This document shows, one piece after another, positions 1-18,876 of a stretch of 64,000 nucleotides of DNA. This DNA is from Terriglobia bacterium. GTDB lineage: Bacteria > Acidobacteriota > Terriglobia > 2-12-FULL-54-10. The stretch is taken from assembly GCA_963666975.2 (NCBI GenBank), contig CAXVYR010000003.1:928001-992000 (forward strand). The letters are read 5' to 3'. How positions within the stretch are numbered: the first letter of the stretch is position 1; each line of letters opens with the position of its first letter. The notes beneath the pieces were generated by a model. It worked only from the letters and a program-made list of their open reading frames with translations, was not told where the DNA came from and made no database searches. The position numbers and the translations under genes were made by a program.

Positions 1-98
1 CATAGGAAGCAAACGAAACAAAGGAAGCAGGGGAAATCCTCTTCTGCCTCTTATGCATCCCCTGCTTCCTATGCTTCTTAAGAGTGTCTCAGTGGCTG
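1..98. repeat. 9-nt-periodic purine/pyrimidine hairpin repeat (left end cut by window)
   Basis: GAAGCA/GAAACA-type units followed by complementary TGCTTC/TGCCTC units; 1-77 is the reverse complement of 621-697 with 6 mismatches by manual alignment. Confidence 0.85.
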
Positions 99-126
99 AT
101 CCGACATTGAAAGAAAAGGAGCAAAC

Positions 127-588
127 ATGGCAAGGACAGCAAGAGAGGACAACCTGGCCCTGCGCGGAGCATTGATCGTGGAGCTTCCGGCGGGCGCGGC
201 AGTGGCGGCGAATGACGCACTCTACCTGGATTCCAGCGGGAAGGTGCAGAAGCTCACCTCGGCGCAGGAAGACAACCGCATCGGAGTGGCACAGAACGCC
301 GCTGCGCTGGATGAAACGGTGCGCGTCCAGGTAGCGGGCAAATGCACCTGCGTGGCCGACGCAAGCATCTCTATCGGCGACCGCGTCGGCGCGCCGCCCA
401 CAACGGCGGGCCGCGTGGCTACGGCCGCGAATACCCTGACGGTCGCTTCCGGCGGCACAGCGGTGACTTCTTCCTCCGCCAACGGGGCCATTGTGACCGG
501 AGACCCGGTCGTAAGCCGCGTGCTGGGCCTCGCCCTCACGACGGCGGCTTCGGCAGGCGACAACATTACGGTGCTGCTGACACTGTGA
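127..588 (+). CDS. DUF2190-like head decoration/capsid cement protein
   Basis: 153 aa, Ala/Gly/Thr-rich; IGVAQNAAA..E.VRVQVAG and VLGLALTTAASAGDNITVLL motifs; SD AAGGAG at 116-121; lies before neck genes. Confidence 0.65.
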   Translation: MARTAREDNLALRGALIVELPAGAAVAANDALYLDSSGKVQKLTSAQEDNRIGVAQNAAALDETVRVQVAGKCTCVADASISIGDRVGAPPTTAGRVATAANTLTVASGGTAVTSSSANGAIVTGDPVVSRVLGLALTTAASAGDNITVLLTL

Positions 589-603
589 GGGCATTGGCCC
601 CCG

Positions 604-721
604 AGCCACAGAGACACGATGAAGCAGAGGAGGCAGGGGAGGCATAAGAGGCAGAAGAGGATTTCCCCTGCTTCCTTTACTTCGTTTGCTTCTTATGTTT
701 CTTACGCGTGCCTCTGTGGCT
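604..721. repeat. 9-nt-periodic hairpin repeat
   Basis: AGCCACAGAGACACG (604-618) pairs with CGTGCCTCTGTGGCT (707-721), enclosing GAAGCAGAG GAGGCAGGG GAGGCATAA.. and the complementary arm. Confidence 0.9.
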
Positions 722-734
722 AATGAGATAACTT

Positions 735-1409
735 ATGCCAAAAACAATTCCTGATTTCCAAGAACTGGTACGGGGCCACGTTCAGGACGCTGCCGAGAAA
801 CTCTCCGGCACGGACCTGACGGCGGCGATTGAGGAGGCGATCAGCGGCCGTTACTCCAAGGACCGCCCGCGAACGCTGCTCTCGGACTTGCTCGGCGACG
901 GCGTGCAATTCGAGTGGGATCTGGCAACTCTCACGGGATGGCAAACGGGCTTCTCGCAGGTTGTCCAAATCGAATACCCGCAGGGTGAGCGCGCTCCTCA
1001 TTACCTGGAAGATGAGGACTGGCTGATCTACGAGTCACCCGCCGCGCAGTTCCTCCGTTTTTCCTTCACGCTCACCAGCGGCAAGACGGCGCGTGTAAAG
1101 TACACCGCCCCGCACACGGCGGACGCCTCCACCGTTCCGGACGCCGATTTCTACGCTGTCGCGTCGCTGGCTGCATCGCTCGCGGCCAAGCGGCTGTCGG
1201 CGCTTTCCGCCCAGACCGGCGACAGCTCGATCGCAGCCGACACGGTGGACTACAGAAGCAAGTCGCAGGAGTACGCTGCCCTGGCACGGCGGCTGGAGAA
1301 AGACTACGAAAATTTGCTGGGGACAGACCCGGGGCGCACTGCCCCAGCGGCTTCCCGGACGGCGGATTGGAAAGGAAAAACGGCGGGAGGCGACCGCCTC
1401 ACGCACTGA
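735..1409 (+). CDS. putative head-tail adaptor/connector protein
   Basis: 224 aa; position after the head gene; helical N- and C-termini around a beta-rich middle; ..DSSIAADTVDYRSK.. C-terminal pattern typical of connectors. Confidence 0.5.
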   Translation: MPKTIPDFQELVRGHVQDAAEKLSGTDLTAAIEEAISGRYSKDRPRTLLSDLLGDGVQFEWDLATLTGWQTGFSQVVQIEYPQGERAPHYLEDEDWLIYESPAAQFLRFSFTLTSGKTARVKYTAPHTADASTVPDADFYAVASLAASLAAKRLSALSAQTGDSSIAADTVDYRSKSQEYAALARRLEKDYENLLGTDPGRTAPAASRTADWKGKTAGGDRLTH

Positions 1410-1462
1410 AAAGTTGCTGACACGCGCGCAGGAACAAAACGGATCGGGAGAAGTCTTAAAAG

Positions 1463-1981
1463 ATGGAACTGAAAATAGAGGTAAAGGTCGGCAGGTTTAC
1501 TGAACGGATCGAGCGCTTCCCAGCCGCATTGCGACGCGGCATCGAGCGGGGACTGGTGCGCTCGACACAACTGTTGCGGCGCGCAGTAGAGACGAATATT
1601 CGAACTCCGCTCGGAACAAAACCTCCGGCAGTGGCCTTGGGGGTTCTGGCAAGCTCTGTGATCGCGGAGGTGGAGGTCAGCCAGGAAAACGCGCGCGCGG
1701 TCGGTCGTGTATTCGTAAAGGCTCCTATCGACCGCTACGGGGTGTTCGTGGAGTTCGGAACATCGCCTCACTGGCCACCCCTCGATCCTCTAATTTCCTG
1801 GGCGCGGATAAAGTTCCACATGACCGACCCGAAGAAAATTCGGGCGACTGCCTGGGCGGTAGCAGAAACGATTGCAAAGCACGGCACGCAGGGGCACTTC
1901 ATGTTCACGCGGGCACATCAGGAAAACGAAAAGAAAGTGGTTTCGATTATGGAAGAGGAGATTGAGCGGATGCTTCCGTAA
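1463..1981 (+). CDS. HK97 gp10-like / minor capsid-tail completion protein
   Basis: YGVFVEFGT.PHWPP and I...GT..HFMF motifs of the HK97 gp10 family. Confidence 0.75.
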   Translation: MELKIEVKVGRFTERIERFPAALRRGIERGLVRSTQLLRRAVETNIRTPLGTKPPAVALGVLASSVIAEVEVSQENARAVGRVFVKAPIDRYGVFVEFGTSPHWPPLDPLISWARIKFHMTDPKKIRATAWAVAETIAKHGTQGHFMFTRAHQENEKKVVSIMEEEIERMLP

Positions 1982-2008
1982 GGGAGCAAGAACCCGACAC
2001 GACAACCC

Positions 2009-2452
2009 ATGTCCCTGGCAAGCAACATTCTGGCGATCAAAACCATCCTCGAAGGGATCAGCGGCGTGACGAACGTGTACGACACCGTTCGGAACTGGCA
2101 AACCGAGAAGGAGTTCCGCGAGGCGGCCCGCAGTTCTTCCGGGACGATTCAGTTCTGGTTCCTCACGCGCGAGTCCAGCGAAGCCGAAGACCTGGGACCG
2201 CAACTGACCGCGCGCCGCCACACCATCGCGCTGCACGGCTATTACGGAGTGAACGACGCCGCCGCCAGTGAAAAAACATTCCAGGCGCTGGTGGAAAGCG
2301 TGGCCGCAGCGGTCGGGGCCGACCGAAAGCTGAACGCGACGGCGCGCCACTCCGGCCCGCCGCAGGTGCGGACCGTGGACTTTCGTGTTGTCAGCAATGT
2401 TCTCTGCCACCACGTGGAACTCGAACTGGCCGTGGAGGAGAAACCCGCGTAG
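2009..2452 (+). CDS. putative tail terminator protein
   Basis: 147 aa immediately before the tail tube; alpha/beta pattern with D.KLN.TA..SG motif. Confidence 0.5.
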   Translation: MSLASNILAIKTILEGISGVTNVYDTVRNWQTEKEFREAARSSSGTIQFWFLTRESSEAEDLGPQLTARRHTIALHGYYGVNDAAASEKTFQALVESVAAAVGADRKLNATARHSGPPQVRTVDFRVVSNVLCHHVELELAVEEKPA

Positions 2453-2494
2453 CCGGAAGCAGTCAGTGAGCAGATATTAACAAGGAGAGAAACA

Positions 2495-3550
2495 ATGGCC
2501 TTCACGGAACCGAGTCATGATTATGAACTGTTATGGCGCTTCTCCACCAACCGCCAGACCACGCTGGGGACGCCGCTGGCCGACGCGGACTTGCCGCTTT
2601 CGGCGCTGATCTCCGGCTTTGACGCCGGCAAGCTCGCGCACCGGATGATCTCCGACGCAGACCGTTTCGGCAAGGGACATCCTTATGCCACCAGCCACCG
2701 CAAGGTGGCGCAAACGACCGCGCTCACCCGAACGCTGGAGTTGAACGACATCTTCGCCGGATGGGCGGCGGCCTTCGCGATGGGCAGCGTCACCACCACG
2801 CAACCCAACGCGGTCAACAATCCCTCCGTCTACGATCACCTCATTCGCTGGTCGGATCTCGCCGTTTCGAAGGTGATGCCCTTCACCACCATCCATGAGC
2901 AGCCCTGGGCGGGGCTGGCGCGCAAGCTGCCGGACCTGGTCGTGGCGAGCTTTGCGCTCAGCGGTCGCGGGCAGGACCCGGTGCAGCTTTCCATCCAAAT
3001 GCTCGGCTCCGGGCGCTCGAGCGACGTCGCTCTGCCCGCCCCCACCCTCTCGACTCCCGCTTATCTCGACAACGGCGGCGCCCTCATCCGTCTGGGACCA
3101 AGCGGAGCAACCGTGGACATCTCCAACCGCGTGGCGGAGTGGAGCGTCGCCGTGCAGGCCAACCCGGATGAGGCCAACGGACGCTTCCCTTCTTCGGGAC
3201 TTTACGTGGACCGCTGGTGGTACGGGCCCAAGCGCACGGCGATTCCGGAGATGACCCTTTTTGTGAACAGAAGTGACACGGACATTCTCGACCTGTTTCG
3301 CAATGACACCGCCCAGGAGCTGCAGATCAACCTCACCGGAGCGGTCATCACAAACGGCCAGCCCGAAATCTACCGTATGGACATGCTCTGGCCGGAGATT
3401 CACTTCACGGCAGCCGAAGACGTAGTGATCGACAACAAGGTCGCCTTCCGCATGACGGTTGCTGAAGACGGCGTATTCCAGAAAGCCGGCAGCGAATATT
3501 TCCAGGTGACGGTGACCAATACAACCGCCGCATACCTGGTGGCGGCATAG
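2495..3550 (+). CDS. major tail (tube) protein
   Basis: 351 aa, beta-rich; strong SD AAGGAG; ends VTVTNTTAAY like tube proteins; canonical position. Confidence 0.65.
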   Translation: MAFTEPSHDYELLWRFSTNRQTTLGTPLADADLPLSALISGFDAGKLAHRMISDADRFGKGHPYATSHRKVAQTTALTRTLELNDIFAGWAAAFAMGSVTTTQPNAVNNPSVYDHLIRWSDLAVSKVMPFTTIHEQPWAGLARKLPDLVVASFALSGRGQDPVQLSIQMLGSGRSSDVALPAPTLSTPAYLDNGGALIRLGPSGATVDISNRVAEWSVAVQANPDEANGRFPSSGLYVDRWWYGPKRTAIPEMTLFVNRSDTDILDLFRNDTAQELQINLTGAVITNGQPEIYRMDMLWPEIHFTAAEDVVIDNKVAFRMTVAEDGVFQKAGSEYFQVTVTNTTAAYLVAA

Positions 3551-3559
3551 GAGAGCGAA

Positions 3560-4306
3560 TTGGAAACCATCGAAGAGCTGTTTGAGCTGGCCCCGGAAGA
3601 GATCGAAGTTTGCCTGCGCCTGGCGCGCAATGGGGAACGCTTTCAGTTGCTGCACTTCGTGCGTCCGCCTGCCTTCGAGGACTGGCTGGACTATGAGCGG
3701 AACCTGCGCGGCTGCATCGAAAGCGTGGAGAGCGAAGGGGAGGAGGCGCTCCGCTTTGATGCTCGCACGTTGGAGGCGGCGGCCTCTCTCTACGACCGCA
3801 TCATTCGCCGCACGGAAGGCTATCGTGCGGGCGAGAAAACCATTGCCGTCCCGGTTGAAAAAATCCCTCTCGACCACAAGGAGATGGTTGTGCGCGGGCT
3901 CGCCAATGTAGCTCCTGCGGCGGTGCCGCCGTCTTCCCAGGCGGAGCCGGACCTGCCGCCCGCAGCTTTCTCGCTGGATTCGGAGGCGATAGAGGTAACG
4001 CTGGAAGCCGGTCGCAACGGGAACACGCACCGGAACCTTGTGCATGTCTTCCGCCCGCCCACGGCTGCCGAAACTATCGAGTTCAGCCGTGTCAGCTCCC
4101 ATGCCCTGTACGTGCGAGGTTCGAAGACCTTGAAATCGATTCTTCCGTCGCGACTGCCTGGCTTGGTGGCGTTGTACGACAAGCTGATCGAACAGGTGCG
4201 CGGCTACGCGGTGGACGGCGCTCCGGTGACCGACCGCGCCGTGATCGCCAAACAGATGGACCCGCTGCACAAGAAAGTGGCCCTGCAGAATCTTTTTGGA
4301 GCGTGA
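3560..4306 (+). CDS. putative tail assembly chaperone (two internally repeated modules)
   Basis: TTG start with SD AGGAG; between tube and tape measure; duplicated LxHxxRPP...LYD.(L/I)I....GY.......I/M...HK modules. Confidence 0.5.
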   Translation: METIEELFELAPEEIEVCLRLARNGERFQLLHFVRPPAFEDWLDYERNLRGCIESVESEGEEALRFDARTLEAAASLYDRIIRRTEGYRAGEKTIAVPVEKIPLDHKEMVVRGLANVAPAAVPPSSQAEPDLPPAAFSLDSEAIEVTLEAGRNGNTHRNLVHVFRPPTAAETIEFSRVSSHALYVRGSKTLKSILPSRLPGLVALYDKLIEQVRGYAVDGAPVTDRAVIAKQMDPLHKKVALQNLFGA

Positions 4307-4333
4307 CGATCTCTCAACGGAAAGTTCCTGCTT

Positions 4334-4732
4334 ATGTCAGTCCGTATAGTGAACACATCTGGTTCCATAGCGTCACCCGGCAGCCCGTCGCGCTTTCAGG
4401 CGGTGCGGGCCAGCCGGGATCGCGAGCAGTTGAGGGAATCGATCTGGCGACATCTCACCGGCATCCACTCCGGTTCTGGCCGTCCTGGCAGACACCCCGC
4501 CAACAAACGCGTCCCCTACGCCTTTGAGCTGTGGATCGCGCACCTGTTGCTGCTGGAACAAACCCTGGAGGTCGCCCCGATTCCCTGGCGGGAGCTGCGC
4601 GCCGAAGAATTGGATGGACTGCTCCTGTTGCGTGCCGCGCAGGAAAGGTTCCGGAGAGAATACCGCCCCTGCGGGCAATGCAGGGCTCCCATCAAAGGGA
4701 AAATTTGTGACCGATGCGGGGCGGTGAACTAA
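4334..4732 (+). CDS. hypothetical pre-tape-measure protein with C-terminal Zn ribbon (second chaperone-like gene)
   Basis: CxxC-x8-CxxC (CGQC..CDRC) at the C-terminus; same reading frame as 3560..4306. Confidence 0.5.
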   Translation: MSVRIVNTSGSIASPGSPSRFQAVRASRDREQLRESIWRHLTGIHSGSGRPGRHPANKRVPYAFELWIAHLLLLEQTLEVAPIPWRELRAEELDGLLLLRAAQERFRREYRPCGQCRAPIKGKICDRCGAVN

Positions 4733-6037
4733 ATGCCACAGAAATCGGTGTCGATTGTCATTGAAGTTGCGGGGGCCGATGATGCCATCGGCCAAGTCCA
4801 GCGGATGCGCTCGGCGCTCGATGACCTGGCGAGTGGCGGCGCGGAGGACATGAACCGTCTGCGCCGCCAGAGCGGCGAAGTCACGCAGGCAATGCAGGAG
4901 ATGAAAAAGGCTTTTCAGTTGCGCGACCTGCAAAAAGAAATGACCGGCAGCCTGGAATCTTTCTTTGGCCGAATTATCTCCGGAGCCCGGACCACCGGCG
5001 ACGTTTTCCAGAACATCTGGCGACAAATCGCCGATTTCTTCAAGCGGACCGTTCGAGAGATGGCCGCCGCCTGGACTCTGAGCCTCGGCGGATCGCTTGC
5101 GGGCGGGGCCGCTGGCGGCGGTTTCTCGCTTGGAAATATTTTCACTCTTCCCGCCATCGGCTCCGGGACCGGGTTCCCTCCGACGACTCGCCGCAACCCG
5201 ACCTTGGCCGAGACATTGGGTCTGCCGGCAACGACACCGCTCGGAGATATTTTGTCCGGAACATTTTCGCGGGGCATCGGGCCGCTCAGCGGCTCACAAG
5301 TTGCGTTGGGCGGATTGAGCTTGGGTGCATTGACCATCGGCAACAGCAACCGTGCTGTCAGCGCCTTGGGAGGAGCGGCGAGCGGAGGCTTGCTCGGTTT
5401 CAGCGTCGGCGGGCCAATCGGCGCGGGTGTGGGAGCGCTGATCGGAGGATTGGCGGGCCTGTTCAGCGGCGGCGGCGGAAAGCAAAAAGAACAGGACACC
5501 GCGATTGCGAACCAGGGCTTCGCGCGAATGCGGGCAATCCTCAATGACTTCGAGCGCTTTCGGATCGACTTCGCCACCCCCATCGACGCCTCACACTTGA
5601 TATGGAGCCGAATGCAATCGCAGTTTGTCCGCTCCGAATCGGTCCGGACACAGCGGCCTTTTTTTGACGAGATCGTCAGCTCGATCCGCCGGACCGAAGA
5701 TGAGCGCAACCGGCGGCGGCAGTTGATGGCCCTGCAGCCGTTGCCGGAGTTTGCCGAAGGCGGTTTTGTGTCTTCGTCAACCTCGAGCTTGTCGAGGGGT
5801 CTGCTTGCTGTGCTGCATCCCGGCGAGTTTGTGATGAACCGCCAGTCGGCGGAGCGAATCGGACTGTCGGCGCTGGAAGGATTAAACAACGGAACCAATC
5901 TTAGCGGGGCCGCACGCGACGGACAGACCGTGACCTTGGAGATCCCGAGCCAGGAGTTTTTCAATGAGGTAGTGGAACGCTCCATCCCGGTGATCCTGCG
6001 GCGCGGCGGCAAGGCAAGCAAGGTGCTGAGAGGATGA
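4733..6037 (+). CDS. short tail tape measure protein
   Basis: helical N-terminus, Gly/Ala/Leu-rich membrane-like segments (GGPIGAGVGALIGGLAGLF), C-terminal FAEGG..LHPGEFV motif. Confidence 0.8.
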   Translation: MPQKSVSIVIEVAGADDAIGQVQRMRSALDDLASGGAEDMNRLRRQSGEVTQAMQEMKKAFQLRDLQKEMTGSLESFFGRIISGARTTGDVFQNIWRQIADFFKRTVREMAAAWTLSLGGSLAGGAAGGGFSLGNIFTLPAIGSGTGFPPTTRRNPTLAETLGLPATTPLGDILSGTFSRGIGPLSGSQVALGGLSLGALTIGNSNRAVSALGGAASGGLLGFSVGGPIGAGVGALIGGLAGLFSGGGGKQKEQDTAIANQGFARMRAILNDFERFRIDFATPIDASHLIWSRMQSQFVRSESVRTQRPFFDEIVSSIRRTEDERNRRRQLMALQPLPEFAEGGFVSSSTSSLSRGLLAVLHPGEFVMNRQSAERIGLSALEGLNNGTNLSGAARDGQTVTLEIPSQEFFNEVVERSIPVILRRGGKASKVLRG

Positions 6038-6118
6038 AGCAGAGGAGGCAAAGGACGCACAGGAGGCAGGGGATTCTTTCCTATGATTCGTTTGTTTCCT
6101 CTGCTTCCTATGCTTCGT
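6034..6118. repeat. 9-nt-periodic hairpin repeat at the tape measure/Dit junction
   Basis: ATGAAGCAGAGGAGGCAAAGGA pairs with TCCTCTGCTTCCTATGCTTCGT. Confidence 0.85.
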
Positions 6119-6124
6119 GAAATT

Positions 6125-6733
6125 ATGGCAACCACAGACATTTTTCCCGTCGATCCCGATTACACGATCACCCGCACGAAGGAAGCGAACGTCCTCCGCG
6201 GGCGAGTCGAAAGCGCCAGAGAATTTCTTCGCCAGAAGGCGGCGCCGCGGCGGGTGTTTGCGCTGGTCTTCAACCGCCGCGCGAAGGCCGACTGGGACGC
6301 AATCGAAAACTTCCGCCTGCGCATGCTGACCGACTTTTTTACTTTCGATGATAAAAGCGCCGGCGGCAGCCCGAACCGGCAGTATTCGGTCTATTTCGAT
6401 GCCGAGCCGGTCTATGAAGAAGCCGGCAACGAGGCTCACAACATCCGCGTGCAGTTGATTGAAGCGGCAGGCGTTGCCATGAACACCTATCCGAGCTTTG
6501 CCGCCGGAAACCCTTCTGTGAATATCCCCGTAGCGCAGGCAACGGACCTGGGAGCAAGCGGCAAGCAGTTTTTGTATCCGGGCTATGGATACCGCGTGAA
6601 CGGCACGTTCACGAGCATTTATCTCGACGAGGTGCTGACCGGCGGCGAGAACCCAAAGACGGACGTCGTCCTCGGACTGCACAGAATACGCATAGTCGGA
6701 GGAAGTCCAGCGAGCTTGGATTATTTGATTTGA
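6125..6733 (+). CDS. putative distal tail protein (Dit/DUF2460-like position)
   Basis: directly after the tape measure; ESAREFLRQKAAPRRVFALVF..IENF..FFTF resembles Dit/lambda gpM-like N-termini; start moved to MATTD because the upstream codons are repeat-derived. Confidence 0.55.
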   Translation: MATTDIFPVDPDYTITRTKEANVLRGRVESAREFLRQKAAPRRVFALVFNRRAKADWDAIENFRLRMLTDFFTFDDKSAGGSPNRQYSVYFDAEPVYEEAGNEAHNIRVQLIEAAGVAMNTYPSFAAGNPSVNIPVAQATDLGASGKQFLYPGYGYRVNGTFTSIYLDEVLTGGENPKTDVVLGLHRIRIVGGSPASLDYLI

Positions 6734-6738
6734 AATCA

Positions 6739-6818
6739 GGGCCGCCAGAGCCTGCCCCGAGCAAAGTCGAGGGGTGAGGGAGCGGTGCCTAGTCGCTAGC
6801 TTGACGCGCGCGGTTCGG
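6739..6818. repeat. REP-like palindrome pair with a nested short palindromic element
   Basis: GCCGC..GTGAGGGAGCGG arm interrupted by CCTGCCCCGAGCAAAGTCGAGGGG (6751-6774); partner arm CTTGACGCGCGCGGTTCGGA. Confidence 0.6.
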
Positions 6819-6826
6819 AATTAGAT

Positions 6827-7537: not shown

Positions 7538-7541
7538 CGCA

Positions 7542-7593
7542 GGCAGAAGACAGAAGCCAGGCATGCCCCGAGCGAAGCCGAGGGGAGTCAGAA
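7542..7593. repeat. 7-mer CAGAAGN repeat with nested short palindromic element
   Basis: CAGAAGA CAGAAGC CAG, then ATGCCCCGAGCGAAGCCGAGGGG (7563-7585), then AGTCAGAA. Confidence 0.55.
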
Positions 7594-7613
7594 TAAAAAA
7601 CAAGAGGTGAAGG

Positions 7614-7841
7614 ATGGCGAAAGTAACGCTGGAGACAATTGACGAGAAGCTAGATCACCTGATCGGGCAACTGAAGCTGCAGGAGCCGATCCCTGCAACG
7701 AGTCCGATCACGCTGGGGCAGGCAGTCAAAATGACGGAGCAAGACGCGAACCTTAGTTTTTCCGTCAGCGCCGGGAAGATTCATTTCTCCAAGAAATATC
7801 CCTTCGGCGAGCAAAAGTGGAGCCGGCCGCTGGCGAGGTGA
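7614..7841 (+). CDS. small hypothetical protein
   Basis: 75-aa ORF with SD GAGGTG/AAGGA, in operon orientation. Confidence 0.55.
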   Translation: MAKVTLETIDEKLDHLIGQLKLQEPIPATSPITLGQAVKMTEQDANLSFSVSAGKIHFSKKYPFGEQKWSRPLAR

Positions 7842-7846
7842 GAAGA

Positions 7847-7951: not shown

Positions 7952-7960
7952 AAATGAACT

Positions 7961-10189: not shown

Positions 10190-12825
10190 TGGCCAAGACA
10201 ACTTTCCTCAATAACCATAGCGATTTGATCTTCGGGTACGAAGTCGATACTACTGTCACCTCGGCGTCGGCGCTCATGACGGCGGGTGATCCGCTGGCGG
10301 ATCCTCCGGTCCCGCCGGTGCGGATTGGCACCAAGGTTTACCCGGCTTCGATTGGAGGCATTGCCTTCAGCATGCTGCTCGAGATCGGCGGAGTTGGACA
10401 GGTGGTGGTAACTGATGTGGATTCCGATGGAGGGGGGAACTTCTTCACCTATTCGGAGGAGATCACTCCGGGCGCAGGGGCCACCGTCCGCACGCCGTGG
10501 AATCTCTCCGGAACGCTGCTGTTCACGCGGGAGAACAACTCCGTCTCTCTGACCTATTTCATTCCGATAGAGCATGACCTCTATTTCCGCACGCAGAAAA
10601 CAATCGATTCCGGATCGATCAGCGTGACGGTGGATGGGATTTCCGCAGGCACTTTTGATCTTTCCAATCCATCTACTATTTTAGCCTCGGTGCTGCTGAA
10701 GGCGGATGTGCCGAACGGAATCCATACCGTGAAAGTGACGGCGCAAATCTCAGGGGGCGCCGTATTCGTTTACTTCAACGGCTTCGAGCTGCTGGAGCAC
10801 AACGTGGAGACCGGCGGGGAGTTTCTCTACCAGGGGCCACAGGGGTTGCTGGATGATTCCTCGAACAACTTCGTCGGCGATTGGGCCACCGTCACGGGTT
10901 TTGCCTGGACGGCCACCTCCGGCGCCGGCGTCTTTTTCTACTCGCAGCTTGACACCGGCGGCAAGGTGAACGCGCGGTTGCAAAAGACGCCCGACTCCGG
11001 GATCGTCGATGTGTATGTCAACGGCGTCTTGGACCAGACCATTGACCTCTATGCGGACCCGGCGGTAAATCCGTTAGAGATCACGTTGCTCGATAACAAT
11101 GCTCCATCGAACGATCCGGCAGGCCTTTACGAGATCGAGATGCGGCATACGGGAACGAAGAACGCCTCCTCGTCCGGTTTCTTCTTCTACTTCAAATCGG
11201 CTGTGGTGGTTTTCACGCGCACGGATACTCAGGCTCTGCAATTGGCGGCGGACTACCTGAAGCAAGTGGCGGCGATCCGAGGCGACGGTGCCTTCCTGGA
11301 CGCGCGGGACTCCGACATCGTCAATTTCGACGCCAATGCGCTGTATGCCTGCATGGGGCTCTTGGCCGCTTACCAAGCGCTGAACATACAAGGGTATCTG
11401 GACGCGGTGCGCGACTTCCTGACATGGTTCGCGGGACTACAGGTAAATGCGCCCGGCAATTCCTTCGACGATGGCGCATGGAACATCGGCTACCGGGTGA
11501 ACCCCTCGCCGCCTCCGGCGTATCTCCCCGCGCTGGGACCCTACGCGCAACAAGGAGTCAGCGAAATCAAGTGGGTGGATGCGGTGCAGTGCCTTCCGGC
11601 GTTTGTGCTGTGGTGGTATTGGAAGCTCTCCGGGGACACTGCCACAAAGGACGCCCTGCTGCCCAAGTTTCGCAAAGCCGTTGACGGGTTCATCGCCAAC
11701 AACCACGACCCGCAGACGGGCTTTTACTTCTCTTCCTGGCAGAACAAGTCTGGGCCCACGATCTTCCTCTACCACGATGCCGTCCGGCGGTACAGCTCCG
11801 GCGGAACCTTGCTGGAGCAGCACAACGACGGCGAGGAGAGCTTCTTCACCTATTCCGGAGCTTGGTCCTCTTACGCGCCGCAGGGAGCGATTGCGAGCGA
11901 CGAACACTTCACGCTAACCAACCAGGACTACCTGGAGTTCTCGCTCGCCTTGAACAGCGGCGACGAGGTCCGCTGGGTGACGCAAACGGCCTGGGACGTC
12001 GGCATCGCCGAAATCCTGGTCTCCACCGACGGCTCCAACTTCAGCGCGGCGGGAACGGTCGACGGTTACACGAGCACTTTGCTGCTCCAGCAGGAATTCC
12101 TGATCTACACGGCGCCTTCCACGGCAACCTATTGGTTCCGCATCCGGCACAGCGGGACGATCAACGCGGCGGGCAACCTTGCGCCGGGCTGGCAGCGGCT
12201 CGCGAATCGGTTCACCGCCGGACAGACCGACGTGGCGCTCGGCTTGACGGGGCTCTGGATGCTGACACGCTCCGCCAAGTATGCGCATCTGGCCGCCCGG
12301 ATCATCCGGCGATTCGCGGGCCGATATTGGAGCGTTGCCGATGGCCGCTGGCTCATCTCGCTCGACGGCGCTGCGCCGGGAACAGCCAACAATTTCTGGT
12401 ACCCGATGGCGCACGGCTACACGGCCTTTGGACAAAAACAATCCCGCCTGTTTCAGCCGGCCAGCCGTTTGAGCGAGGGATTGCAGGCTCTGGAATCGTT
12501 CCAGGACAGCGAAGGCGGCTTTCAGCCTCCGGGCTACATCGAGGCGGAGCACATCTTCTCGGCGTTTTATGCGCTGGGAGAGAATCAGCTTGCAACGAAG
12601 ACGAATCAGGCTGCGTTTGACCTGGCAAAGGAGCACATCAAAGCCGGGCAATACCTTTTGGACATAGGCGGCGTGCAGGCGGGCGGCGTGGTGTTCAGCA
12701 AGAGGTTTCAGTTTTTGTATACCAACATTTCCGGCTTCGCTTGCATGGCGCTGGCTGGAACGACAAACCCTCTCACGGAGCAGTTGCGTTTCAGCGTCCC
12801 GCGCGTGGCATTGCCGGCGGCATGA
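10189..12825 (+). CDS. tail-associated protein with CBM-like jelly-roll modules and an (alpha/alpha) glycoside-hydrolase-like domain
   Basis: TGATG coupling; three DxG.(V/A).V.(V)DG...GT.D.Y modules; aromatic helical repeats (ALYACMGLLAAY, WWYWKLSGD, LTGLWMLT). Confidence 0.55.
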   Translation: MAKTTFLNNHSDLIFGYEVDTTVTSASALMTAGDPLADPPVPPVRIGTKVYPASIGGIAFSMLLEIGGVGQVVVTDVDSDGGGNFFTYSEEITPGAGATVRTPWNLSGTLLFTRENNSVSLTYFIPIEHDLYFRTQKTIDSGSISVTVDGISAGTFDLSNPSTILASVLLKADVPNGIHTVKVTAQISGGAVFVYFNGFELLEHNVETGGEFLYQGPQGLLDDSSNNFVGDWATVTGFAWTATSGAGVFFYSQLDTGGKVNARLQKTPDSGIVDVYVNGVLDQTIDLYADPAVNPLEITLLDNNAPSNDPAGLYEIEMRHTGTKNASSSGFFFYFKSAVVVFTRTDTQALQLAADYLKQVAAIRGDGAFLDARDSDIVNFDANALYACMGLLAAYQALNIQGYLDAVRDFLTWFAGLQVNAPGNSFDDGAWNIGYRVNPSPPPAYLPALGPYAQQGVSEIKWVDAVQCLPAFVLWWYWKLSGDTATKDALLPKFRKAVDGFIANNHDPQTGFYFSSWQNKSGPTIFLYHDAVRRYSSGGTLLEQHNDGEESFFTYSGAWSSYAPQGAIASDEHFTLTNQDYLEFSLALNSGDEVRWVTQTAWDVGIAEILVSTDGSNFSAAGTVDGYTSTLLLQQEFLIYTAPSTATYWFRIRHSGTINAAGNLAPGWQRLANRFTAGQTDVALGLTGLWMLTRSAKYAHLAARIIRRFAGRYWSVADGRWLISLDGAAPGTANNFWYPMAHGYTAFGQKQSRLFQPASRLSEGLQALESFQDSEGGFQPPGYIEAEHIFSAFYALGENQLATKTNQAAFDLAKEHIKAGQYLLDIGGVQAGGVVFSKRFQFLYTNISGFACMALAGTTNPLTEQLRFSVPRVALPAA

Positions 12826-12836
12826 GGAGGAGAAAA

Positions 12837-14639
12837 ATGGAGAATAAAGGAAATAGTGGAAGCAGAGGAAACAGAGGAGGCAGAGGAAACAAAGGATTGT
12901 TCATATGCTTCCTCTGCTTCTTTTGCTTCCTTTGCTTCGCACGCTTCGCGCGCGCTCAAGCTCCGGCGACCACCACGGTCCAGGACACGGTTTATAAGCC
13001 GGATGGTACGCTGGCGTCCGGTTCCGTGGTGATCTCCTGGTCCCCTTTCCTGACGGCTGACAGCAAGCCGGTCTTCGGAGGGACCAAGACCGTGACGCTG
13101 ACGAACGGGTCTCTGGCGGTGGCGCTGACGCCGAACTCCGGTGGAACACCCTCGGGTACTTCCTACGGGGTAAAGTTCCTCCAGTCCGGTGGCGTCTTTT
13201 TTGAGGAGACATGGGTGGTGCCGGCCAGCTCGCCGCTGGCGAATCCCGCGCAGCCGGTTTCGGTGACGCAGGCGGGAACGCCGGGCAGCACTACGTATTA
13301 CTACTGGTGCACGGCGACGAACGCCAGCGGCGAGACCTTGCTGTCGCCTTCGCGGATCACCACGACCTCGCACGCTACGCTGGATGGGACCAACTACAAC
13401 ATCATCACCTGCGCCACCGTCTCCGGAGCCACGGGCTATAAAGCGTATCGGACGACGACCTCGACCGCGCCGAGCGGCACTGGGCTTTACCTGGCGGGCA
13501 GCTCGGCTACCACAACGATCAACGACCAGTCGAACACACTGACTTCGGAGACGATCCCGACGCTGAACACCACGGACCCGAAGACGCTGGCGCAGGTCCG
13601 GGTGACGGCAGCGCCAACACCGACAGTGATCTTCAACGCAACGCAGGTGACCGGGACGGCGATTGTATCCACTCCTTCGGCCACGCAGACGATCACAGCG
13701 CCTGCCACCGCGGGATTGATCCCGCTGCAACTCAAGGGAAACACAACGGCCAACGCGAACGTGCTGGAGATATTCGACTCGCAGGCTACCCCGGTTCGCC
13801 AGAGCTACTTCGACTCCGGAGGGAAGCTAAACACGGCGCAGCTGATCACCTCCACGCTGGCCACCGGGACGGCGCCGTTTTCGGTAGCGTCAACCACCCT
13901 CGTAACGAACCTGAATGCGGACACACTGGACGGAATTCAAGGGTCGTCGCTAGTTCAGACGACGCGGCTGATCAGCACCACCTCGCCCATAACCGGAGGG
14001 GGCGACCTGAGCGCGGACCGGACGATTGCCTGCGCCACCTGCACGACCAATGCGGCCGCATTGACGGCGAACGAGCTGATGATCGGCGGCGGCGGCCAGG
14101 CCGCCCAGGCGCTGGGATCGCCGGGTACGACGACAACCGTACTGCACGGCAACGCCGCAGGCGCACCAACATATTCTGCGGTGAGTCTGACGGCGGACGT
14201 TACCGGAATTCTGCCACTTGCAAACGGCGGCACGGGAAGCGCTACGCAGAACTTTGTGGACCTGACAACGAACCAGTCAGTCGGCGGGGTGAAGACGTTC
14301 TCTCAAGAAGTAGTGTCGAGCCAGTTCCTCTCCGGGGCGCTGGTCTCGGTGACGTTTTCCACCACTCCAGACTTCGACGCCGGTTTGGGGAATTTATTGA
14401 AGCTGACCTTAACAGGCAATGTCACCAGCTCGACGATCTCGAACCCGACCAGCGGCGAACAGATATTACTGCTGCTGTGCCAGGACGCGACCGGGTCGCG
14501 CACGATGGCCTGGCCGAGCAACCTGAAGCTGGCCGGAGGGTCATACACTTTAACCACGACCGCCAGCAAGTGCGACACGCTGACGGCAGCCTACGATGGG
14601 AGTAACTGGTATGAAATGGCAAGAGCGACGAATGAGTAA
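12837..14639 (+). CDS. fibre-like protein 1 with predicted signal peptide
   Basis: SD GAGGAGG 12824-12830; N-terminus ..KGLFICFLCFFCFLCFARFARA|QAP; fibre motifs VASTTLVTNLNADTLDG, GILPLANGGTG, QSVGGVKTFS; C-terminal QDATGSRT..WP phage fibre/adhesin domain. Confidence 0.75.
   Translation: MENKGNSGSRGNRGGRGNKGLFICFLCFFCFLCFARFARAQAPATTTVQDTVYKPDGTLASGSVVISWSPFLTADSKPVFGGTKTVTLTNGSLAVALTPNSGGTPSGTSYGVKFLQSGGVFFEETWVVPASSPLANPAQPVSVTQAGTPGSTTYYYWCTATNASGETLLSPSRITTTSHATLDGTNYNIITCATVSGATGYKAYRTTTSTAPSGTGLYLAGSSATTTINDQSNTLTSETIPTLNTTDPKTLAQVRVTAAPTPTVIFNATQVTGTAIVSTPSATQTITAPATAGLIPLQLKGNTTANANVLEIFDSQATPVRQSYFDSGGKLNTAQLITSTLATGTAPFSVASTTLVTNLNADTLDGIQGSSLVQTTRLISTTSPITGGGDLSADRTIACATCTTNAAALTANELMIGGGGQAAQALGSPGTTTTVLHGNAAGAPTYSAVSLTADVTGILPLANGGTGSATQNFVDLTTNQSVGGVKTFSQEVVSSQFLSGALVSVTFSTTPDFDAGLGNLLKLTLTGNVTSSTISNPTSGEQILLLLCQDATGSRTMAWPSNLKLAGGSYTLTTTASKCDTLTAAYDGSNWYEMARATNE
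12856..12942. repeat. 9-nt-periodic hairpin repeat inside the signal-peptide coding sequence
   Basis: GGAAGCAGA GGAAACAGA GGAGGCAGA GGAAACAAA arm and TGCTTCCTC TGCTTCTTT TGCTTCCTT TGCTTCGCA arm. Confidence 0.9.
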
Positions 14640-15000
14640 TTGTATTGTAGCCCTACTGCTGATCTGGGCGGCTGCGGCTTTCGGGCAGGAGCCGCAACCG
14701 GAGACCGAAGCGCCAGCGCAGACGGAGTTGACCGAGGTCGAGGCGCTGAAGGGGGAGAACCTGCAACTGAAGTACGACTCCATCGACAAGCAGATGCGCC
14801 TCATGCAAACGCAGTACCAGCAGCTTCAAGCGCAGCAGGCCGGGATTGTCCGGCAGCTCCAGCAGCTCGAGGGGGAAATCCTTGAGGGGCGCTCGTTAAA
14901 GCCAGGTGAAGGGATCGTGAACTGGCAGGAGAAGACAGTGCAGGAAATTAGCCGCAGAGGTACGGAGAACGCAGAGAACGTTTTGGAGAAAAATCAATGA
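14632..15000 (+). CDS. secreted coiled-coil protein
   Basis: MSNCIVALLLIWAAAAFG|QEP signal-like N-terminus; Gln/Leu heptads; overlaps the upstream stop. Confidence 0.65.
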   Translation: MSNCIVALLLIWAAAAFGQEPQPETEAPAQTELTEVEALKGENLQLKYDSIDKQMRLMQTQYQQLQAQQAGIVRQLQQLEGEILEGRSLKPGEGIVNWQEKTVQEISRRGTENAENVLEKNQ

Positions 15001-15065
15001 ACAGAAGATTTTTGGTGAAAGTAATTTATGCTTCGTTGCTTTGTGTCCTCGGTGTCTCCGCGGCT
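14950..15065. repeat. 9-nt-periodic hairpin spanning a gene junction
   Basis: AGCCGCAGAGGTACGGAGAACGCAGAG (14950-14976) pairs with CTTTGTGTCCTCGGTGTCTCCGCGGCT (15039-15065). Confidence 0.8.
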
Positions 15066-17276
15066 CAATCCCAGACGCTGGTGACGATCACCGACACCCT
15101 CAAGAACGCCGACGGAACGAACGCAGCCGGCCGTGTGGTGATCTCCTGGGACCCGTTCACCGCCGCAAGCGGCGAGACGGTTGACGGTGGCACGATCCCC
15201 TACACGATCACAAACGGTGTCGTCAACCTTTCCCTGGCTCCGAACATTGGGGCCACGCCTGCCGGGACGAGCTACCGGGCTCAATACTATTTGACCAACC
15301 GGGCGAGCTACCGGGAAACGTGGGTGGTCCCGGCAACAGGGCCGGTGACGATCGCGGCCATTCGTGTGACCACGGTCCCTTCGCCAACCGTGACATTCAA
15401 TGCCGCCTTGCAGCTCACCAACTTCGATATGAGCACGCAGACGTTCACCCGGCCGGTGAAGCTGGGGACGACCCTACCGGCGACTTGCACCCTGGGAGAT
15501 CTGTTCGTGGACACCGATCTCACTCCGGCCGGGCAGCAGCTTTACCTTTGCACAGCGACCGATACATGGACACTGGTGGGCGACGGCGGCGGCGCCGGGT
15601 CAGGCATCACCAGCCTGAACGGATTGACGGCGGCGACGCAGACCTTCGCAGTTCCCGGAACCACAGGCACGGTGCCGACCTGGTCCTCGGCTACCTCGAT
15701 CCACACGCTGAATATCCCGTTGGCGGCGACGGCCAGCGTCACGGCCGGGCTGCTGAGCAAAACCGATTACGACACATTCAACGCCAAAGAAAGCACGCTG
15801 ACGTTCAGCTCGCCGCTATCGCGCTCGGTCAACACGATCTCTTGCGCGACCTGTTCGGTTTCAGGCCATACGCACACGGAAGCGAACATCACGGACTTGG
15901 CCCACCGAACCGCCGGGGTCGGCATCGGACTTTCGGTAAACGACCTGAGCCTGGACCTCGCAGAGCTAGTCGTAAACCAGACGATCTTCAATTCAGCCAA
16001 CGCCAGCCGCACGATTACATTCGGGCTATCCGGAGCTACGGACCCGGTCCTGACTTTGGCAGACGGGGTGTTCAATGTCTCAACTGGAACCCTTCAACAG
16101 GCAGGGACGGCGGTATCGCTGAGCGGGCACACGCACGTCGAGGCGAATATCACCGATCTGAGCCACGCCGATGCCTCGAAGCTCCCGCTGGCCGGCGGAA
16201 CGATGACCGGCGAGCTGGTCCTTCGGGCGGCAGGTGCAGCGATCTCAGGCGGGGGCCTGGTGGACTGCGATAACCCCACCACCTCGAAGCTGCTCTGGGA
16301 TATCACGACTGCGCGACTCTCTTGCGGAACCGACCAGGGCGGCGGAGGCGGGATCACAAACCTGGAAGGACAAACCGGCGCGACCCAAACTTTCACCGAT
16401 GACACCAACGTAACCATCGTGAGCGCCGCCGATGCCCATGTGATCACCTGGGCCGGGACGCTTGCGGTTGCTCGTGGCGGCCTGGGCGTCGGCACCATCA
16501 CCGGGTTGATGCAGGGGAATGGCACCAGCGCAGTCACCGGGATAACCAATTCCTCAACTGTGGGACAAGTCTTGCGCGTCACAGGAGCAAGCGCCTACGG
16601 ATTCGGCGCGCTTGATCTGGCGGATGGGGATGCGGTGACGGGCTTGCTGCCGGATGGAAATGTCGCGGCCTCTCTCATGCGGGATTCGGAGTTGGCGGCG
16701 TTCACGGTCACAAAGACGAATATGACCTACGACGCCGAGGGGACGGGGAACGTAATCACGCTTCCATTTCTCATCAACTACAAGGCTGCCGTCTGTCAGA
16801 ACGCCACGGCAACGGGAGGGTTCAGTGAGCCGACGAGCAACGCCCCGGCGGCGACCTGCGTTACGGGAACCAACACGCAATTCGGGACGGCGGCCTTTGA
16901 CGCAGCCACGGATGAGTCCGTGCAGGACAGGTTCACGCTTCCCTCCGACTGGACAGGGAATATCGACCTTGCCTTGATCTGGAGGGCGGCGGCGACGACC
17001 GGGAACGCAGCGTGGGACCTGCAAACAGTGTGCGTGGACGACGCCGAGACGGGCGACCCGGCTTTTAACGTCGCACAGGAAGTGGTGGACGCGGCCAAGG
17101 GGACGGCGAACCAGTTCAACGACGCCTCCATATCGACCGTGACCGTTACCGGCTGCACGGCAGGGGATACGTTCTTCTTCAAGTTCTTCCGCGACGCCAA
17201 TGATGCCACCAATGACACCATGACAGGAGACGCGGAGCTAATCTCGCTGACATTCACCATCAGGAGGGCTATGTAA
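14997..17276 (+). CDS. fibre-like protein 2 with predicted signal peptide
   Basis: MNRRFLVKVIYASLLCVLGVSAAQS|Q; N-terminal domain paralogous to 12837..14639; two SGHTHxEANITDL motifs; GITSLNG, GTLAVARGG, KLPLAGGTMTG fibre motifs. Confidence 0.75.
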   Translation: MNRRFLVKVIYASLLCVLGVSAAQSQTLVTITDTLKNADGTNAAGRVVISWDPFTAASGETVDGGTIPYTITNGVVNLSLAPNIGATPAGTSYRAQYYLTNRASYRETWVVPATGPVTIAAIRVTTVPSPTVTFNAALQLTNFDMSTQTFTRPVKLGTTLPATCTLGDLFVDTDLTPAGQQLYLCTATDTWTLVGDGGGAGSGITSLNGLTAATQTFAVPGTTGTVPTWSSATSIHTLNIPLAATASVTAGLLSKTDYDTFNAKESTLTFSSPLSRSVNTISCATCSVSGHTHTEANITDLAHRTAGVGIGLSVNDLSLDLAELVVNQTIFNSANASRTITFGLSGATDPVLTLADGVFNVSTGTLQQAGTAVSLSGHTHVEANITDLSHADASKLPLAGGTMTGELVLRAAGAAISGGGLVDCDNPTTSKLLWDITTARLSCGTDQGGGGGITNLEGQTGATQTFTDDTNVTIVSAADAHVITWAGTLAVARGGLGVGTITGLMQGNGTSAVTGITNSSTVGQVLRVTGASAYGFGALDLADGDAVTGLLPDGNVAASLMRDSELAAFTVTKTNMTYDAEGTGNVITLPFLINYKAAVCQNATATGGFSEPTSNAPAATCVTGTNTQFGTAAFDAATDESVQDRFTLPSDWTGNIDLALIWRAAATTGNAAWDLQTVCVDDAETGDPAFNVAQEVVDAAKGTANQFNDASISTVTVTGCTAGDTFFFKFFRDANDATNDTMTGDAELISLTFTIRRAM

Positions 17277-17572
17277 TGTCTCTATACACCAGACTCACTG
17301 GAATTGACCGGGCAGAAAATGAGCCGAAGCTGGCTATCCATTCGCTGTTTGCCTTGCTGTCGGAGCGGAAGCGCGGGCGGCTGACCAATCAACAAGTCCT
17401 CGATTCTTTGGGTCTGTCGGCATTGGAAAAGACCGAGCTAATTGTGCTGGTTGGAAAAATCATAGACAGCACCCTCGATGCAGGCGAGGTGGAAGATGTC
17501 TTACTTTTAGCCGAGCAGGGGGTGCCGCCCTACGACACGGAGGCGGCGGTCAAGTCTCGCCTGGGGGTTTAA
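17276..17572 (+). CDS. small helical protein, possible fibre chaperone
   Basis: 98 aa, translationally coupled on both sides (TAATG overlaps). Confidence 0.55.
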   Translation: MSLYTRLTGIDRAENEPKLAIHSLFALLSERKRGRLTNQQVLDSLGLSALEKTELIVLVGKIIDSTLDAGEVEDVLLLAEQGVPPYDTEAAVKSRLGV

Positions 17573-18876
17573 TGTTGATTAGAAATATACTTTTTCTCAT
17601 CCTGCTGTTTGCGAGCACCGCCCTTGCCGATCTCGGCGCAAAAGTCGGGTCCTTCGCTATATCAACGGGCGCGGCGACAACCACGCAGACCATTTCCGGC
17701 GTCGGATTTCAACCTAAACTCATCATCTTTTGGTGGTCTGGCCGGGTCACTGCTGTTGACGCTGTGGGCCGGGCGACTCATGTTCTTGGACGAGGGGCTA
17801 CTGACGGGACGAATCGATGGGCGAATGCCGGCAGGTCAGCAGATGCCCTTGGAACTTCTGAAACCTCCAGAAGGACTACAAATCTCGCCCTTATTATGGA
17901 CATCGATTCTTCCGGCAACGAAGCCGCAGCAGCCGATATCGACGCGATGCTTACCGATGGATTTCGTATCATCATCGACAACCAATTCGCGTCGGCTTTC
18001 AGGATTCACTATCTCGCCCTGGGTGGAAGCGACATCACGGGAGCGTTTGTCGGAACCTATGATGTGACGGCCGGGACCGGAAACTTCTCCGTGACGGGAG
18101 TAGGCTTTCAGCCAGAGTTTGTGTTCTTTAGCTCGCCTATGGCATCGGATACCGCAGAGGTTGCCGGTACGGATGGTCAAACCGGGGACAATATGGGGGC
18201 CGCTGTATCTTCGACCGCGCGGGCAACCTTGGCCGGATCCAGCTTTGACGCTCTGGGGACTTCAGACACCGCCTCGTATATTTATTCGGGCGAGGCGCTC
18301 TCCGGGATGAGCAGCACATCCTCCATGTCCCGCCGCTACGATTTCGTTTCGATGGACGCAGACGGCTTTACGATTAACAGGGTAGAAAACAATCCCGTTG
18401 TCCAATTCTATGCGGCCTTGGCCGGGCCGAGCTTTACCGTTGGAACGCTCACCACGCAGACGGACACGACGACCGACATCGCAGAGAGCGGCCTCGGCTT
18501 CCAGCCTTCCGCCATCATGTTCTTTTCGGCGGGCAGGGCGGAATCTACGGCGGACACTCCGACCGCCGACGAAATGATAACTATTGGAGCGGGGACGGGC
18601 ACAACGGAGCGCGGGGTCCAGGCAATACGAGATGAGGATAACGTAGCCACCACGGAAGTCACAACGGCAATCGAATTTGATGCGGTGTACGCCAATTTAT
18701 CGTCTGGGGCCATCGCGGGCTTGATGGACATCAAATCCATAGACTCGGACGGATTCACGGCAATCATGGATGACGCCGATCCGAGCGGGATGCTCGTCTG
18801 GTATTGGGCCATTGGAAATCCTCCGGCCATAGGCTTAACCCCGGCGGGGATCATCAACAACCCGCTGGGGTTCTAG
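17572..18876 (+). CDS. secreted protein with three GVGFQP repeats (fibre tip/adhesin-like)
   Basis: MLIRNILFLILLFASTALA|D signal; three repeats of (G.F/Y)...T.....SG(V/L)GFQP...(F)..., each ending D(A/S)DGF. Confidence 0.7.
   Translation: MLIRNILFLILLFASTALADLGAKVGSFAISTGAATTTQTISGVGFQPKLIIFWWSGRVTAVDAVGRATHVLGRGATDGTNRWANAGRSADALGTSETSRRTTNLALIMDIDSSGNEAAAADIDAMLTDGFRIIIDNQFASAFRIHYLALGGSDITGAFVGTYDVTAGTGNFSVTGVGFQPEFVFFSSPMASDTAEVAGTDGQTGDNMGAAVSSTARATLAGSSFDALGTSDTASYIYSGEALSGMSSTSSMSRRYDFVSMDADGFTINRVENNPVVQFYAALAGPSFTVGTLTTQTDTTTDIAESGLGFQPSAIMFFSAGRAESTADTPTADEMITIGAGTGTTERGVQAIRDEDNVATTEVTTAIEFDAVYANLSSGAIAGLMDIKSIDSDGFTAIMDDADPSGMLVWYWAIGNPPAIGLTPAGIINNPLGF

Follow-up and report, generated by a model that had tools for sequence, protein, structure and literature searches.

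Positions 1–18,876 of the window, the 64,000-nucleotide stretch of Terriglobia bacterium DNA analysed here (contig CAXVYR010000003.1, positions 928,001 to 992,000), are probably the tail part of a phage-derived cluster of morphogenesis and lysis genes that the bacterial lineage keeps as its own. The genome, 4.23 Mb in four contigs, is referred to as G000 and the window as G000:C3:928001-992000; the 60 kb upstream of the window were also examined, and genes there are given in negative window coordinates. The whole cluster is co-directional and measures 27.6 kb (G000:C3:919262-946876). It starts 8.7 kb upstream of the window (window −8738), and the part inside the window is its tail two-thirds. 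From its gene content, the cluster is predicted to encode everything needed for a siphovirus-type particle: small and large terminase (TerS and TerL), portal, protease–capsid fusion, neck, tube, tape measure and tail tip. It has no genes for integration, transposition, replication or immunity, appears to be vertically inherited at a conserved locus and shows the marks of purifying selection, the traits by which a domesticated element resembling a gene transfer agent (GTA) can be recognized in genomes. This makes it a strong candidate for a new host-owned, GTA-like particle.

Between 127 and 18,876, the window holds 18 open reading frames (ORFs), all on the + strand and separated by gaps of 0–146 nt or small overlaps, the sole exception being a 423-nt gap at 7537–7961. 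This agrees with the original prediction of an intact, co-directional and tightly coupled operon of about 19 kb. Assembled contigs from four runs of four studies span the region from 649 to 20000, into the flanking ubiD gene, at an identity of at least 99.9%. Among the listed runs, none is recorded as RNA and none is marked as a virus-particle preparation. The cluster runs from a cell-wall hydrolase through p161, p105, TerS, TerL, portal and protease–capsid fusion to the tube, tape measure, hub, gpJ-like and fibre genes. Its left border is formed by an exported tetratricopeptide repeat (TPR) protein on the other strand, followed by the host rplU-rpmA-obg operon. On the right, where a metabolic gene had been noticed, lies a UbiD-family decarboxylase on the − strand (19232–20980; PF01977, PF20696, PF20695), a host gene outside the element with an amidohydrolase gene beyond it. 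The ubiD gene also adjoins the cluster in the relatives G001 and G003, there directly after p881.

The head and packaging genes, expected by the original prediction to lie beyond the window, are found just upstream of it, also on the + strand. The first cluster gene, starting at −8738, encodes a 481-aa protein with a SleB-type cell-wall hydrolase domain (PF07486). It is followed by p161, whose two hydrophobic helices and coiled-coil tail suggest a holin- or spanin-like protein. The two genes head the cluster in all six syntenic genomes. Next comes p105, the best-conserved protein, a small protein with a predicted PadR fold: its model (pLDDT 74) resembles small winged-helix regulators of the PadR family (TM-scores of 0.55–0.59, best E 3e-4), and a profile search of the PDB sequences returned chance-level matches only. 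The TerS candidate behind p105 is a helical protein of 214 aa with a weak, below-cut-off match to Mu gp27 (PF11985, E 4e-4); a fold search gave nothing at E ≤0.001, its weak matches being homeodomain-like proteins and the G20c small terminase. TerL belongs to Terminase_6N/6C and is the sole Terminase_6N gene of G000. The portal candidate (548 aa) is assigned by its position after TerL, with SPP1_portal as its sole family match (E 0.011). The prohead protease/capsid fusion (791 aa; PF25209, NF045541) follows the portal and ends at −2. Neither the portal profile nor the capsid fusion matched PDB sequences at E ≤0.8.

Inside the window, the first gene encodes a head decoration- or cement-like protein of 153 aa (127–588; PF09956, E 9e-8; phrog_673). 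It is a lineage-specific insertion between two hairpins: tblastn finds no match in the relatives G003, G005 and G008, where the capsid gene abuts p224, and the gene assembles as a separate 645-bp contig in all four runs. Four neck and tube genes come next. These are p224 (735–1409), a head–tail joining candidate by position with 68–71% identity in G003 and G005 and 44% in G008; a 172-aa Neck1/tail-completion-like protein (1463–1981; phrog_5, E 7e-10); p147 (2009–2452), a neck or tail terminator candidate by position with 69–76% identity in G003 and G005; and the 351-aa tail tube protein (2495–3550; PF18906, E 4.6e-7), with 76–81% identity in the same two genomes. The conserved pair p248 and p132 (3560–4732) occupies the place of tail assembly chaperones between the tube and the tape measure. 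The tape measure protein itself (4733–6037) matches phrog_3547, phrog_167 and other tape-measure PHROGs, in line with its earlier recognition as a short, 434-aa tape measure. No tail sheath family was found in Pfam or PHROG scans of all cluster ORFs, and a tube and tape measure without a sheath indicate, as far as gene content can tell, a tail of siphovirus type.

The tail tip follows. A distal tail protein, a four-cysteine hub and a gpJ-like tip had been proposed here; family matches back the last two, and the first is a candidate by position. The latter, dit216 (6083–6733), has 72–76% identity in G001, G003, G005 and G008, and its true start is probably near 6125. The hub gene (6827–7537) encodes a baseplate hub N-domain (PF09931, formerly DUF2163; E 5.6e-7). 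Its four cysteines (C154, C163, C183 and C190), located in the C-terminal half, are invariant in all five aligned orthologues, and presumably the protein resembles the Fe-S-binding lambda gpL family. The next gene (7961–10189, 742 aa) encodes a gpJ-like central tail tip protein that matches PF13550 (E 1.4e-8) and phrog_31, ‘central tail fiber J’ (E 1e-30). The large distal tail protein p881 (10180–12825; 69–79% identity in G001, G003 and G005) is the last gene common to all syntenic relatives. Beyond it lies a variable distal block of p632, p134, p759, p98 and p434 (12939–18876), absent in G001 and G003 and partly different in G005 and G008. In this block, p632 has a weak tail-fibre C-terminus, p134 forms a coiled coil, and p759 and p434 have hydrophobic N-termini. 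Pfam and PHROG scans gave no family for p224, p147, p248, p132, dit216, p881, p98 or p434.

No integrase, transposase, resolvase, repressor or replication gene was found inside or beside the cluster, nor Mor/C-type activators or transposase A/B at the locus. The nearest PF00589 integrase match is 56 kb away. No rve match lies within 25 kb, the nearest being a weak one 25 kb to the left; this match and a 154-aa resolvase-like frame 16 kb to the left are both beyond the host murLigase-obg block. The borders share no direct repeat of at least 11 nt that could mark att sites, and Rfam finds no tRNA at the locus. A tRNA-Ser called by ARAGORN at 6710–6805 was rejected, as it has no Rfam counterpart and its core is a dispersed 45-nt repeat. 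The claimed lack of integrase, att/tRNA and replication genes therefore holds, and the upstream side shows terminase, portal and capsid genes leading to rplU-rpmA-obg, with no integrase, repressor or replication module found. Elsewhere in G000, an rve-family insertion sequence with a 369-aa frame occurs in more than 30 identical copies over all contigs (e.g. C3:865864 and C4:736656), none of them in the cluster.

G000 belongs to an order whose single family, f1, comprises 14 species genomes. Of the 13 others, 10 have TerL at 61–85% identity, highest within the genus, and relatives found with the tube profile are metagenome-assembled genomes (MAGs) of Acidobacteriota/Terriglobia. According to tblastn maps, the cluster occupies the same locus in six genomes of four genera (G000, G001, G002, G003, G005 and G006), in the order h218-obg-L27-L21-(TPR)-hydrolase-p161-p105-TerS-TerL-...-p881. 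Three metagenome contigs (L169, L173 and L181) repeat this arrangement among the 24 contigs of at least 8 kb that were mapped, out of 61 loci found. A p105 profile run over 301 Terriglobia genomes matched 9 of 13 in f1, 41 of 47 in f5 (38 of 44 without three unpublished genomes), the only genome of f10 and one of seven in f11, and none of the 232 genomes in nine other Terriglobia families. The distribution is thus lineage-wide, not patchy.

The second family, f5, has a cluster of its own. In all nine genomes examined, from at least seven genera (L026-L029, L022-L023 and L146-L157), a collinear cluster surrounds the p105 marker. It contains p161-like and p105-like genes, TerL, a Mu-type portal (Portal_Mu, PF06074), a Mu-like_Pro (PF10123) protease fusion and a tube gene, and is bordered left and right by conserved host genes, those for ornithine cyclodeaminase and creatininase among them. 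Its ratios of nonsynonymous to synonymous substitution rates (dN/dS) are 0.13–0.43, and its identities equal or exceed those of the flanks. The f1 and f5 clusters occupy different loci. A deep host tree (23 genomes, four proteins, quick method) left the family relations unresolved and did not show f1 and f5 as sisters.

Descent with the host is also visible in trees and substitution rates. The TerL tree and the host tree (Obg+L27+L21) agree on the supported clades (G000,G001,G002), (G005,(G003,G010)) and (G007,G011); the remaining nodes lack resolution in one tree or both. Between G000 and G002, cluster genes have dN/dS values of 0.20–0.36 (NG86), with a cluster dS of 0.23–0.40 against 0.17–0.24 in flanking host genes. 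Between G000 and G001, the corresponding values are 0.14–0.33 and 0.48–1.19 against 0.43–0.65. The overall range of 0.14–0.36 refers to these two unsaturated pairs only. Host genes compared with G002 give dN/dS of 0.06–0.31, and orthologous cluster frames are all open. The closeness of cluster and flank dS, together with the low dN/dS, suggests that the cluster in these genomes is under constraint and has roughly the age of the DNA around it. Its codon use is fully host-like: six long cluster genes lie at the 43rd–94th percentile of host ORFs for host-preferred codons. The GC content is 0.609 in the cluster versus 0.577 in the host, and at third codon positions 0.756 versus 0.690. Similar codon and GC biases are reported for alphaproteobacterial GTAs in the available part of PMC9765227. 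Upstream genes, synteny, trees and dN/dS thus support a host-maintained particle rather than a recent prophage, as originally proposed.

No close free-phage relative was found. Among 2.9 million viral contigs, short fragments are the only close copies: IMG/VR yields four pieces of 4.4–5.0 kb (77–78% identity), besides a contig of 7.4 kb (41%) and a long contig that is unrelated (29%). In 50,697 phage records, the best matches do not exceed 33% identity for the capsid fusion, where no more than 36% of the protein is covered, and 27% for gpJ. Distant metagenome relatives (portal identity 32–49%) include contigs with phage-like early regions; in L209 (portal identity 38%), the upstream genes include those for a Dam methylase and an AAA_22 ATPase. 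When 10 upstream ORFs of five contigs were scanned against Pfam, only three could be assigned to a family. In Bryobacterales/Solibacter MAGs, several distant copies of the tube gene (24–30% identity) occur per genome (L050/L101, L049/L051 and L063/L087/L107), L050 and L101 lying about 25 kb apart on one chromosome. Short contigs with tube relatives (L037, at 71% identity, L047, L109 and L112) are assigned to MAGs of Gemmatimonadales, Nitrospinae, Methylomirabilota and Pseudomonadota; for L037 at least, the assignment is probably due to mis-binning rather than transfer.

The gene order of the cluster matches the late region of Mu, which runs from lysis genes and small proteins through TerS, TerL, portal and protease/scaffold to the capsid. 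The likeness to Mu-like siphoviruses extends to the weak gp27 match of TerS and, through relatives, to Portal_Mu and Mu-like_Pro in f5 and the AAA_22 ATPase in L209. In contrast, transposase A/B, a repressor and Mor/C-type activators were not found at the locus, and the G000 portal has no Mu family match. Taken together, the Mu-type head genes of f5 and the early region of L209 suggest a transposable-phage ancestry. Mu-like phages insert at random; if this ancestry is right, an insertion site common to four genera would not stem from site-specific re-integration.

The resemblance to the gene transfer agent RcGTA, proposed from the short tape measure and the genes after it, proved to be partial. 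Both elements are head–tail clusters without replication or integration genes, vertically inherited, under purifying selection, and with codon use and GC above the host mean. In the tail tip they have in common the PF09931 hub N-domain and the PF13550 (Phage-tail_3) protein, and both have a short tape measure. DUF2460 (PF09343, g12-type distal tail) and Phage_BR0599 (PF09356, g13-type hub C-domain) had no match in G000 at E ≤1; both were detected in control genomes, for DUF2460 with one over the cut-off. The present cluster also lacks an NlpC/P60 gene between hub and tip. It holds a lysis-type cassette, whereas the lysis genes of RcGTA lie outside its cluster, and with 27.6 kb it is nearly twice as long as that of RcGTA, which measures about 15 kb. 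The g3–g5 genes of RcGTA encode an HK97-type portal, protease and capsid; no homologues of these were found here, where the protease and capsid are fused and the portal has no significant family. Further differences are the phylum, the head and tube families (Terminase_6N/6C, the NF045541/PF25209 fusion and PF18906) and a TerS that may keep its helix-turn-helix (HTH). With matches limited to the hub N-domain and Phage-tail_3, the cluster does not appear to be a homologue or family member of RcGTA. Published parallels to its RcGTA-type traits are found in the accessible portions of PMC10883770, PMC9765227 and PMC5721377.

The experimentally known GTAs listed in the part of PMC11841831 at hand (RcGTA-like, BaGTA, VSH-1, Dd1 and VTA) come from a handful of lineages. 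BaGTA, VSH-1, Dd1 and VTA are independent domestications of tailed phages in separate lineages, and the cluster described here would be another; those systems have particle and DNA-content data, whereas this one is known from genes alone. Domesticated defective prophages of enterobacteria are also reportedly vertically inherited remnants under purifying selection, as Bobay, Touchon and Rocha are said to have described in 2014. These differ in being scattered within a species or genus; here, several genera, belonging to two families, keep a complete particle set in a single operon.

The main functional alternative is that the cluster, although domesticated, specifies a defective-phage particle of PBSX type that kills or lyses cells, in competition or as a public good, without productive DNA delivery. 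PBSX has a contractile tail, lysis and regulator genes within its own cluster, and Xre/late sigma-like control. Like PBSX, the present locus is a chromosomally fixed, non-propagating cluster with terminase, head and tail genes, its own lysis genes and a small regulator. Its hydrolase and membrane/coiled-coil cassette and its small DNA-binding, PadR-fold protein speak for this alternative, and the variable fibre block is expected under pressure on target range. The tail with tube and tape measure has no sheath gene, unlike that of PBSX, and a PadR-fold protein stands in place of Xre/sigma-type regulators, none of which was seen. Killing and DNA delivery are not separated by sequence alone, and we consider a killer particle unlikely.

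Several observations weigh against a cluster maintained by its lineage. In G001 (95% complete, 10 contigs), eight genes from portal through p248 are deleted at the locus, and the tube profile finds no tube gene anywhere in that genome. The same profile matches only 6 of the 14 f1 genomes, missing G001, four MAGs of 69–88% completeness and the genus g8. In g8 (three genomes, 82–100% complete), TerL, tube, gpJ and p105 were not found, and the rplU region lacks the cluster and is rearranged. The rearrangement, upstream of L21 in G009 and G012, rules out g8 as a clean empty site for comparison. The absence can be read as loss or as late gain, because g8 moves between two host trees, grouping as sister of g6 in one (support 94/95) and taking a basal position in the other (78). 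The 9.3 kb upstream of L21 in G007 contain no cluster gene. In G008, the cluster and its TPR gene are on a different contig from obg, and identities are uneven, with 36–50% for head and tube genes and 55–78% for dit, hub, gpJ, p881, p161 and p105. G008 and the contigs L188 and L192 are mosaics, suggesting that modules have been exchanged. In genus g1, cluster dS exceeds flank dS by about 1.3–1.8 fold. Contigs of the four runs show 21 recent single-nucleotide polymorphism (SNP) sites, of which 14 are nonsynonymous and seven synonymous, and the contig of one run has a 1-nt deletion inside p881. Finally, the N-terminus of TerS has an HTH-like helix pair (H14-25 and H30-41), and the protein may keep a DNA-binding end; known GTA TerS proteins lack a DNA-binding domain, according to the available text of PMC11841831.

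The G001 deletion, the absence from g8, the excess of recent nonsynonymous SNPs and the 1-nt deletion in p881 in one run would fit a decaying, functionless prophage remnant whose conserved look comes from linkage to essential ribosomal genes and from too little time. This is improbable, since about 25 genes keep intact frames in genomes whose synonymous sites are saturated (dS >1), dN/dS is 0.08–0.36 for most genes, codon use is above the host median, and the same pattern recurs in a second family in at least seven genera. A still-infectious temperate phage, repeatedly targeting the rplU-proximal site and integrating and replicating through unrecognised cluster proteins or a helper in trans, could draw on the many proteins without a family (p224, p147, p248, p132, p881, p98 and p434), on the access to a shared gene pool seen in the mosaics and on the transposable-phage-like early region of the distant L209, but it is very improbable, as the unassigned genes are all in structural positions, both borders abut host genes, identities follow the host tree with dS close to that of the host, the 2.9 million viral contigs offer no close copy beyond short fragments, and, if the ancestor was Mu-like and would insert at random, a site common to four genera argues for descent.

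The cluster carries several unusual repeats. Four long imperfect hairpins are built of GGAAGCA-like heptads, a motif found at four loci in the cluster against 0.2 expected. One (1–98, reaching to about −29; −64.5 kcal/mol) lies between the protease–capsid fusion and the decoration gene, and a second (604–721; −68.7 kcal/mol) after the decoration gene. The third (6036–6107; −41.9 kcal/mol) marks the junction of tape measure and distal tail genes, and the fourth (12846–12938; −57.5 kcal/mol) lies after p881, before the variable fibre block. The palindromic junction repeats noticed earlier are therefore real at four sites (−42 to −69 kcal/mol), but their supposed copy in host DNA at 30.1 kb is a chance 15-mer without a hairpin. 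G000 has just one further palindromic copy, at C4:2055k. Relatives have such hairpins at other junctions, and G005 also has them in host intergenic DNA.

Another palindrome, in the gap between hub and gpJ (7850–7925), has arms of CACAGAG type, similar to the outer arms of the two hairpins around the decoration gene, and two runs have small indels within it, at 7864 and 7918. At the G001 deletion junction between TerL and p132 (L017:10100-10560), four palindromic units of about 57 nt stand in tandem. The spacer between dit216 and the hub contains a 45-nt dispersed host repeat (6741–6785) with five further G000 copies of 42–51 nt, where extra short contigs pile up. At the right end, the four runs all deviate from the window sequence in the spacer behind p434 (18927–19005), with 26 nt missing at 18927 and a 46-nt replacement at 18999–19005. 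A 134-aa + strand ORF at 18910–19314, which overlaps the 3′ end of ubiD and has a 51-residue match in G001 only, is probably no gene.

The divergent spacer before the first cluster gene (G000:C3 ~919140-919225) contains a 9-nt periodic (N5)TCGG array. The array is degenerate in G000 and counts 29 units in G001, nine in G005 and seven in G003 (L017:15459-15723, L031:9244-9319 and L019:14596-14662 in relatives). It is followed by a conserved TTTCTTGC...AAACTCGGCTTGT-ATG. Runs of at least four TCGG units occur only once more in the whole G000 genome, and the array may be a binding site for the PadR-like p105. The conserved TTGC ahead of the first gene was rejected as a sigma-54 element, since its spacing is wrong for one, and a promoter and terminator consensus scan of 1–19500 gave counts no higher than shuffled sequences.

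Under the reading we prefer, that of a cluster kept by the lineage as its own, the cluster would descend from a temperate siphovirus that had a head module partly of Mu type and lost its early region. In a few cells, host signals would switch on the operon, and the PadR-like protein and the phased TCGG array may mediate this. Particles would then assemble and, as there is no replicating phage genome to draw on, the terminase would package chromosomal DNA into the heads. The producer cell would lyse through the cluster's own hydrolase cassette, and the released particles might deliver host DNA to kin, as GTAs do, or act on competitors.

A more specific proposal, which we advance only tentatively, is that of a first GTA system in Acidobacteriota: an ancient and independent domestication of a siphovirus with a Mu-type head, maintained at fixed positions in two families of Terriglobia (about 50 of the 60 sampled species genomes), with a self-contained lysis cassette, a PadR-like switch and in situ packaging of the chromosome. 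If so, particles could carry host DNA genome-wide, or export DNA next to the cluster directionally, in a manner resembling lateral transduction, and the mosaic relatives would record the movement of the particles themselves between lineages. We found no paper describing such an element. A full-text search for ‘gene transfer agent’ with Terriglobia returned nothing, and the same term with Acidobacteria or Acidobacteriota returned only papers containing both terms. Ordinary prophages in cultured strains are described in passages of PMC5900883, whose supplementary prophage tables may list relatives in cultured Acidobacteria.

Whether more GTAs exist, and what marks them, is a question raised in the accessible part of a review (PMC11841831). 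If abundant, uncultured Acidobacteria keep a particle locus under selection throughout a lineage, this would be a further, independent origin of GTAs, with an architecture of its own. Which GTA traits are convergent could then be tested, among them early-gene loss, host-like codon use, raised GC and changes in TerS, and a path for the exchange of genes would come into view in a phylum where genetic work is difficult.

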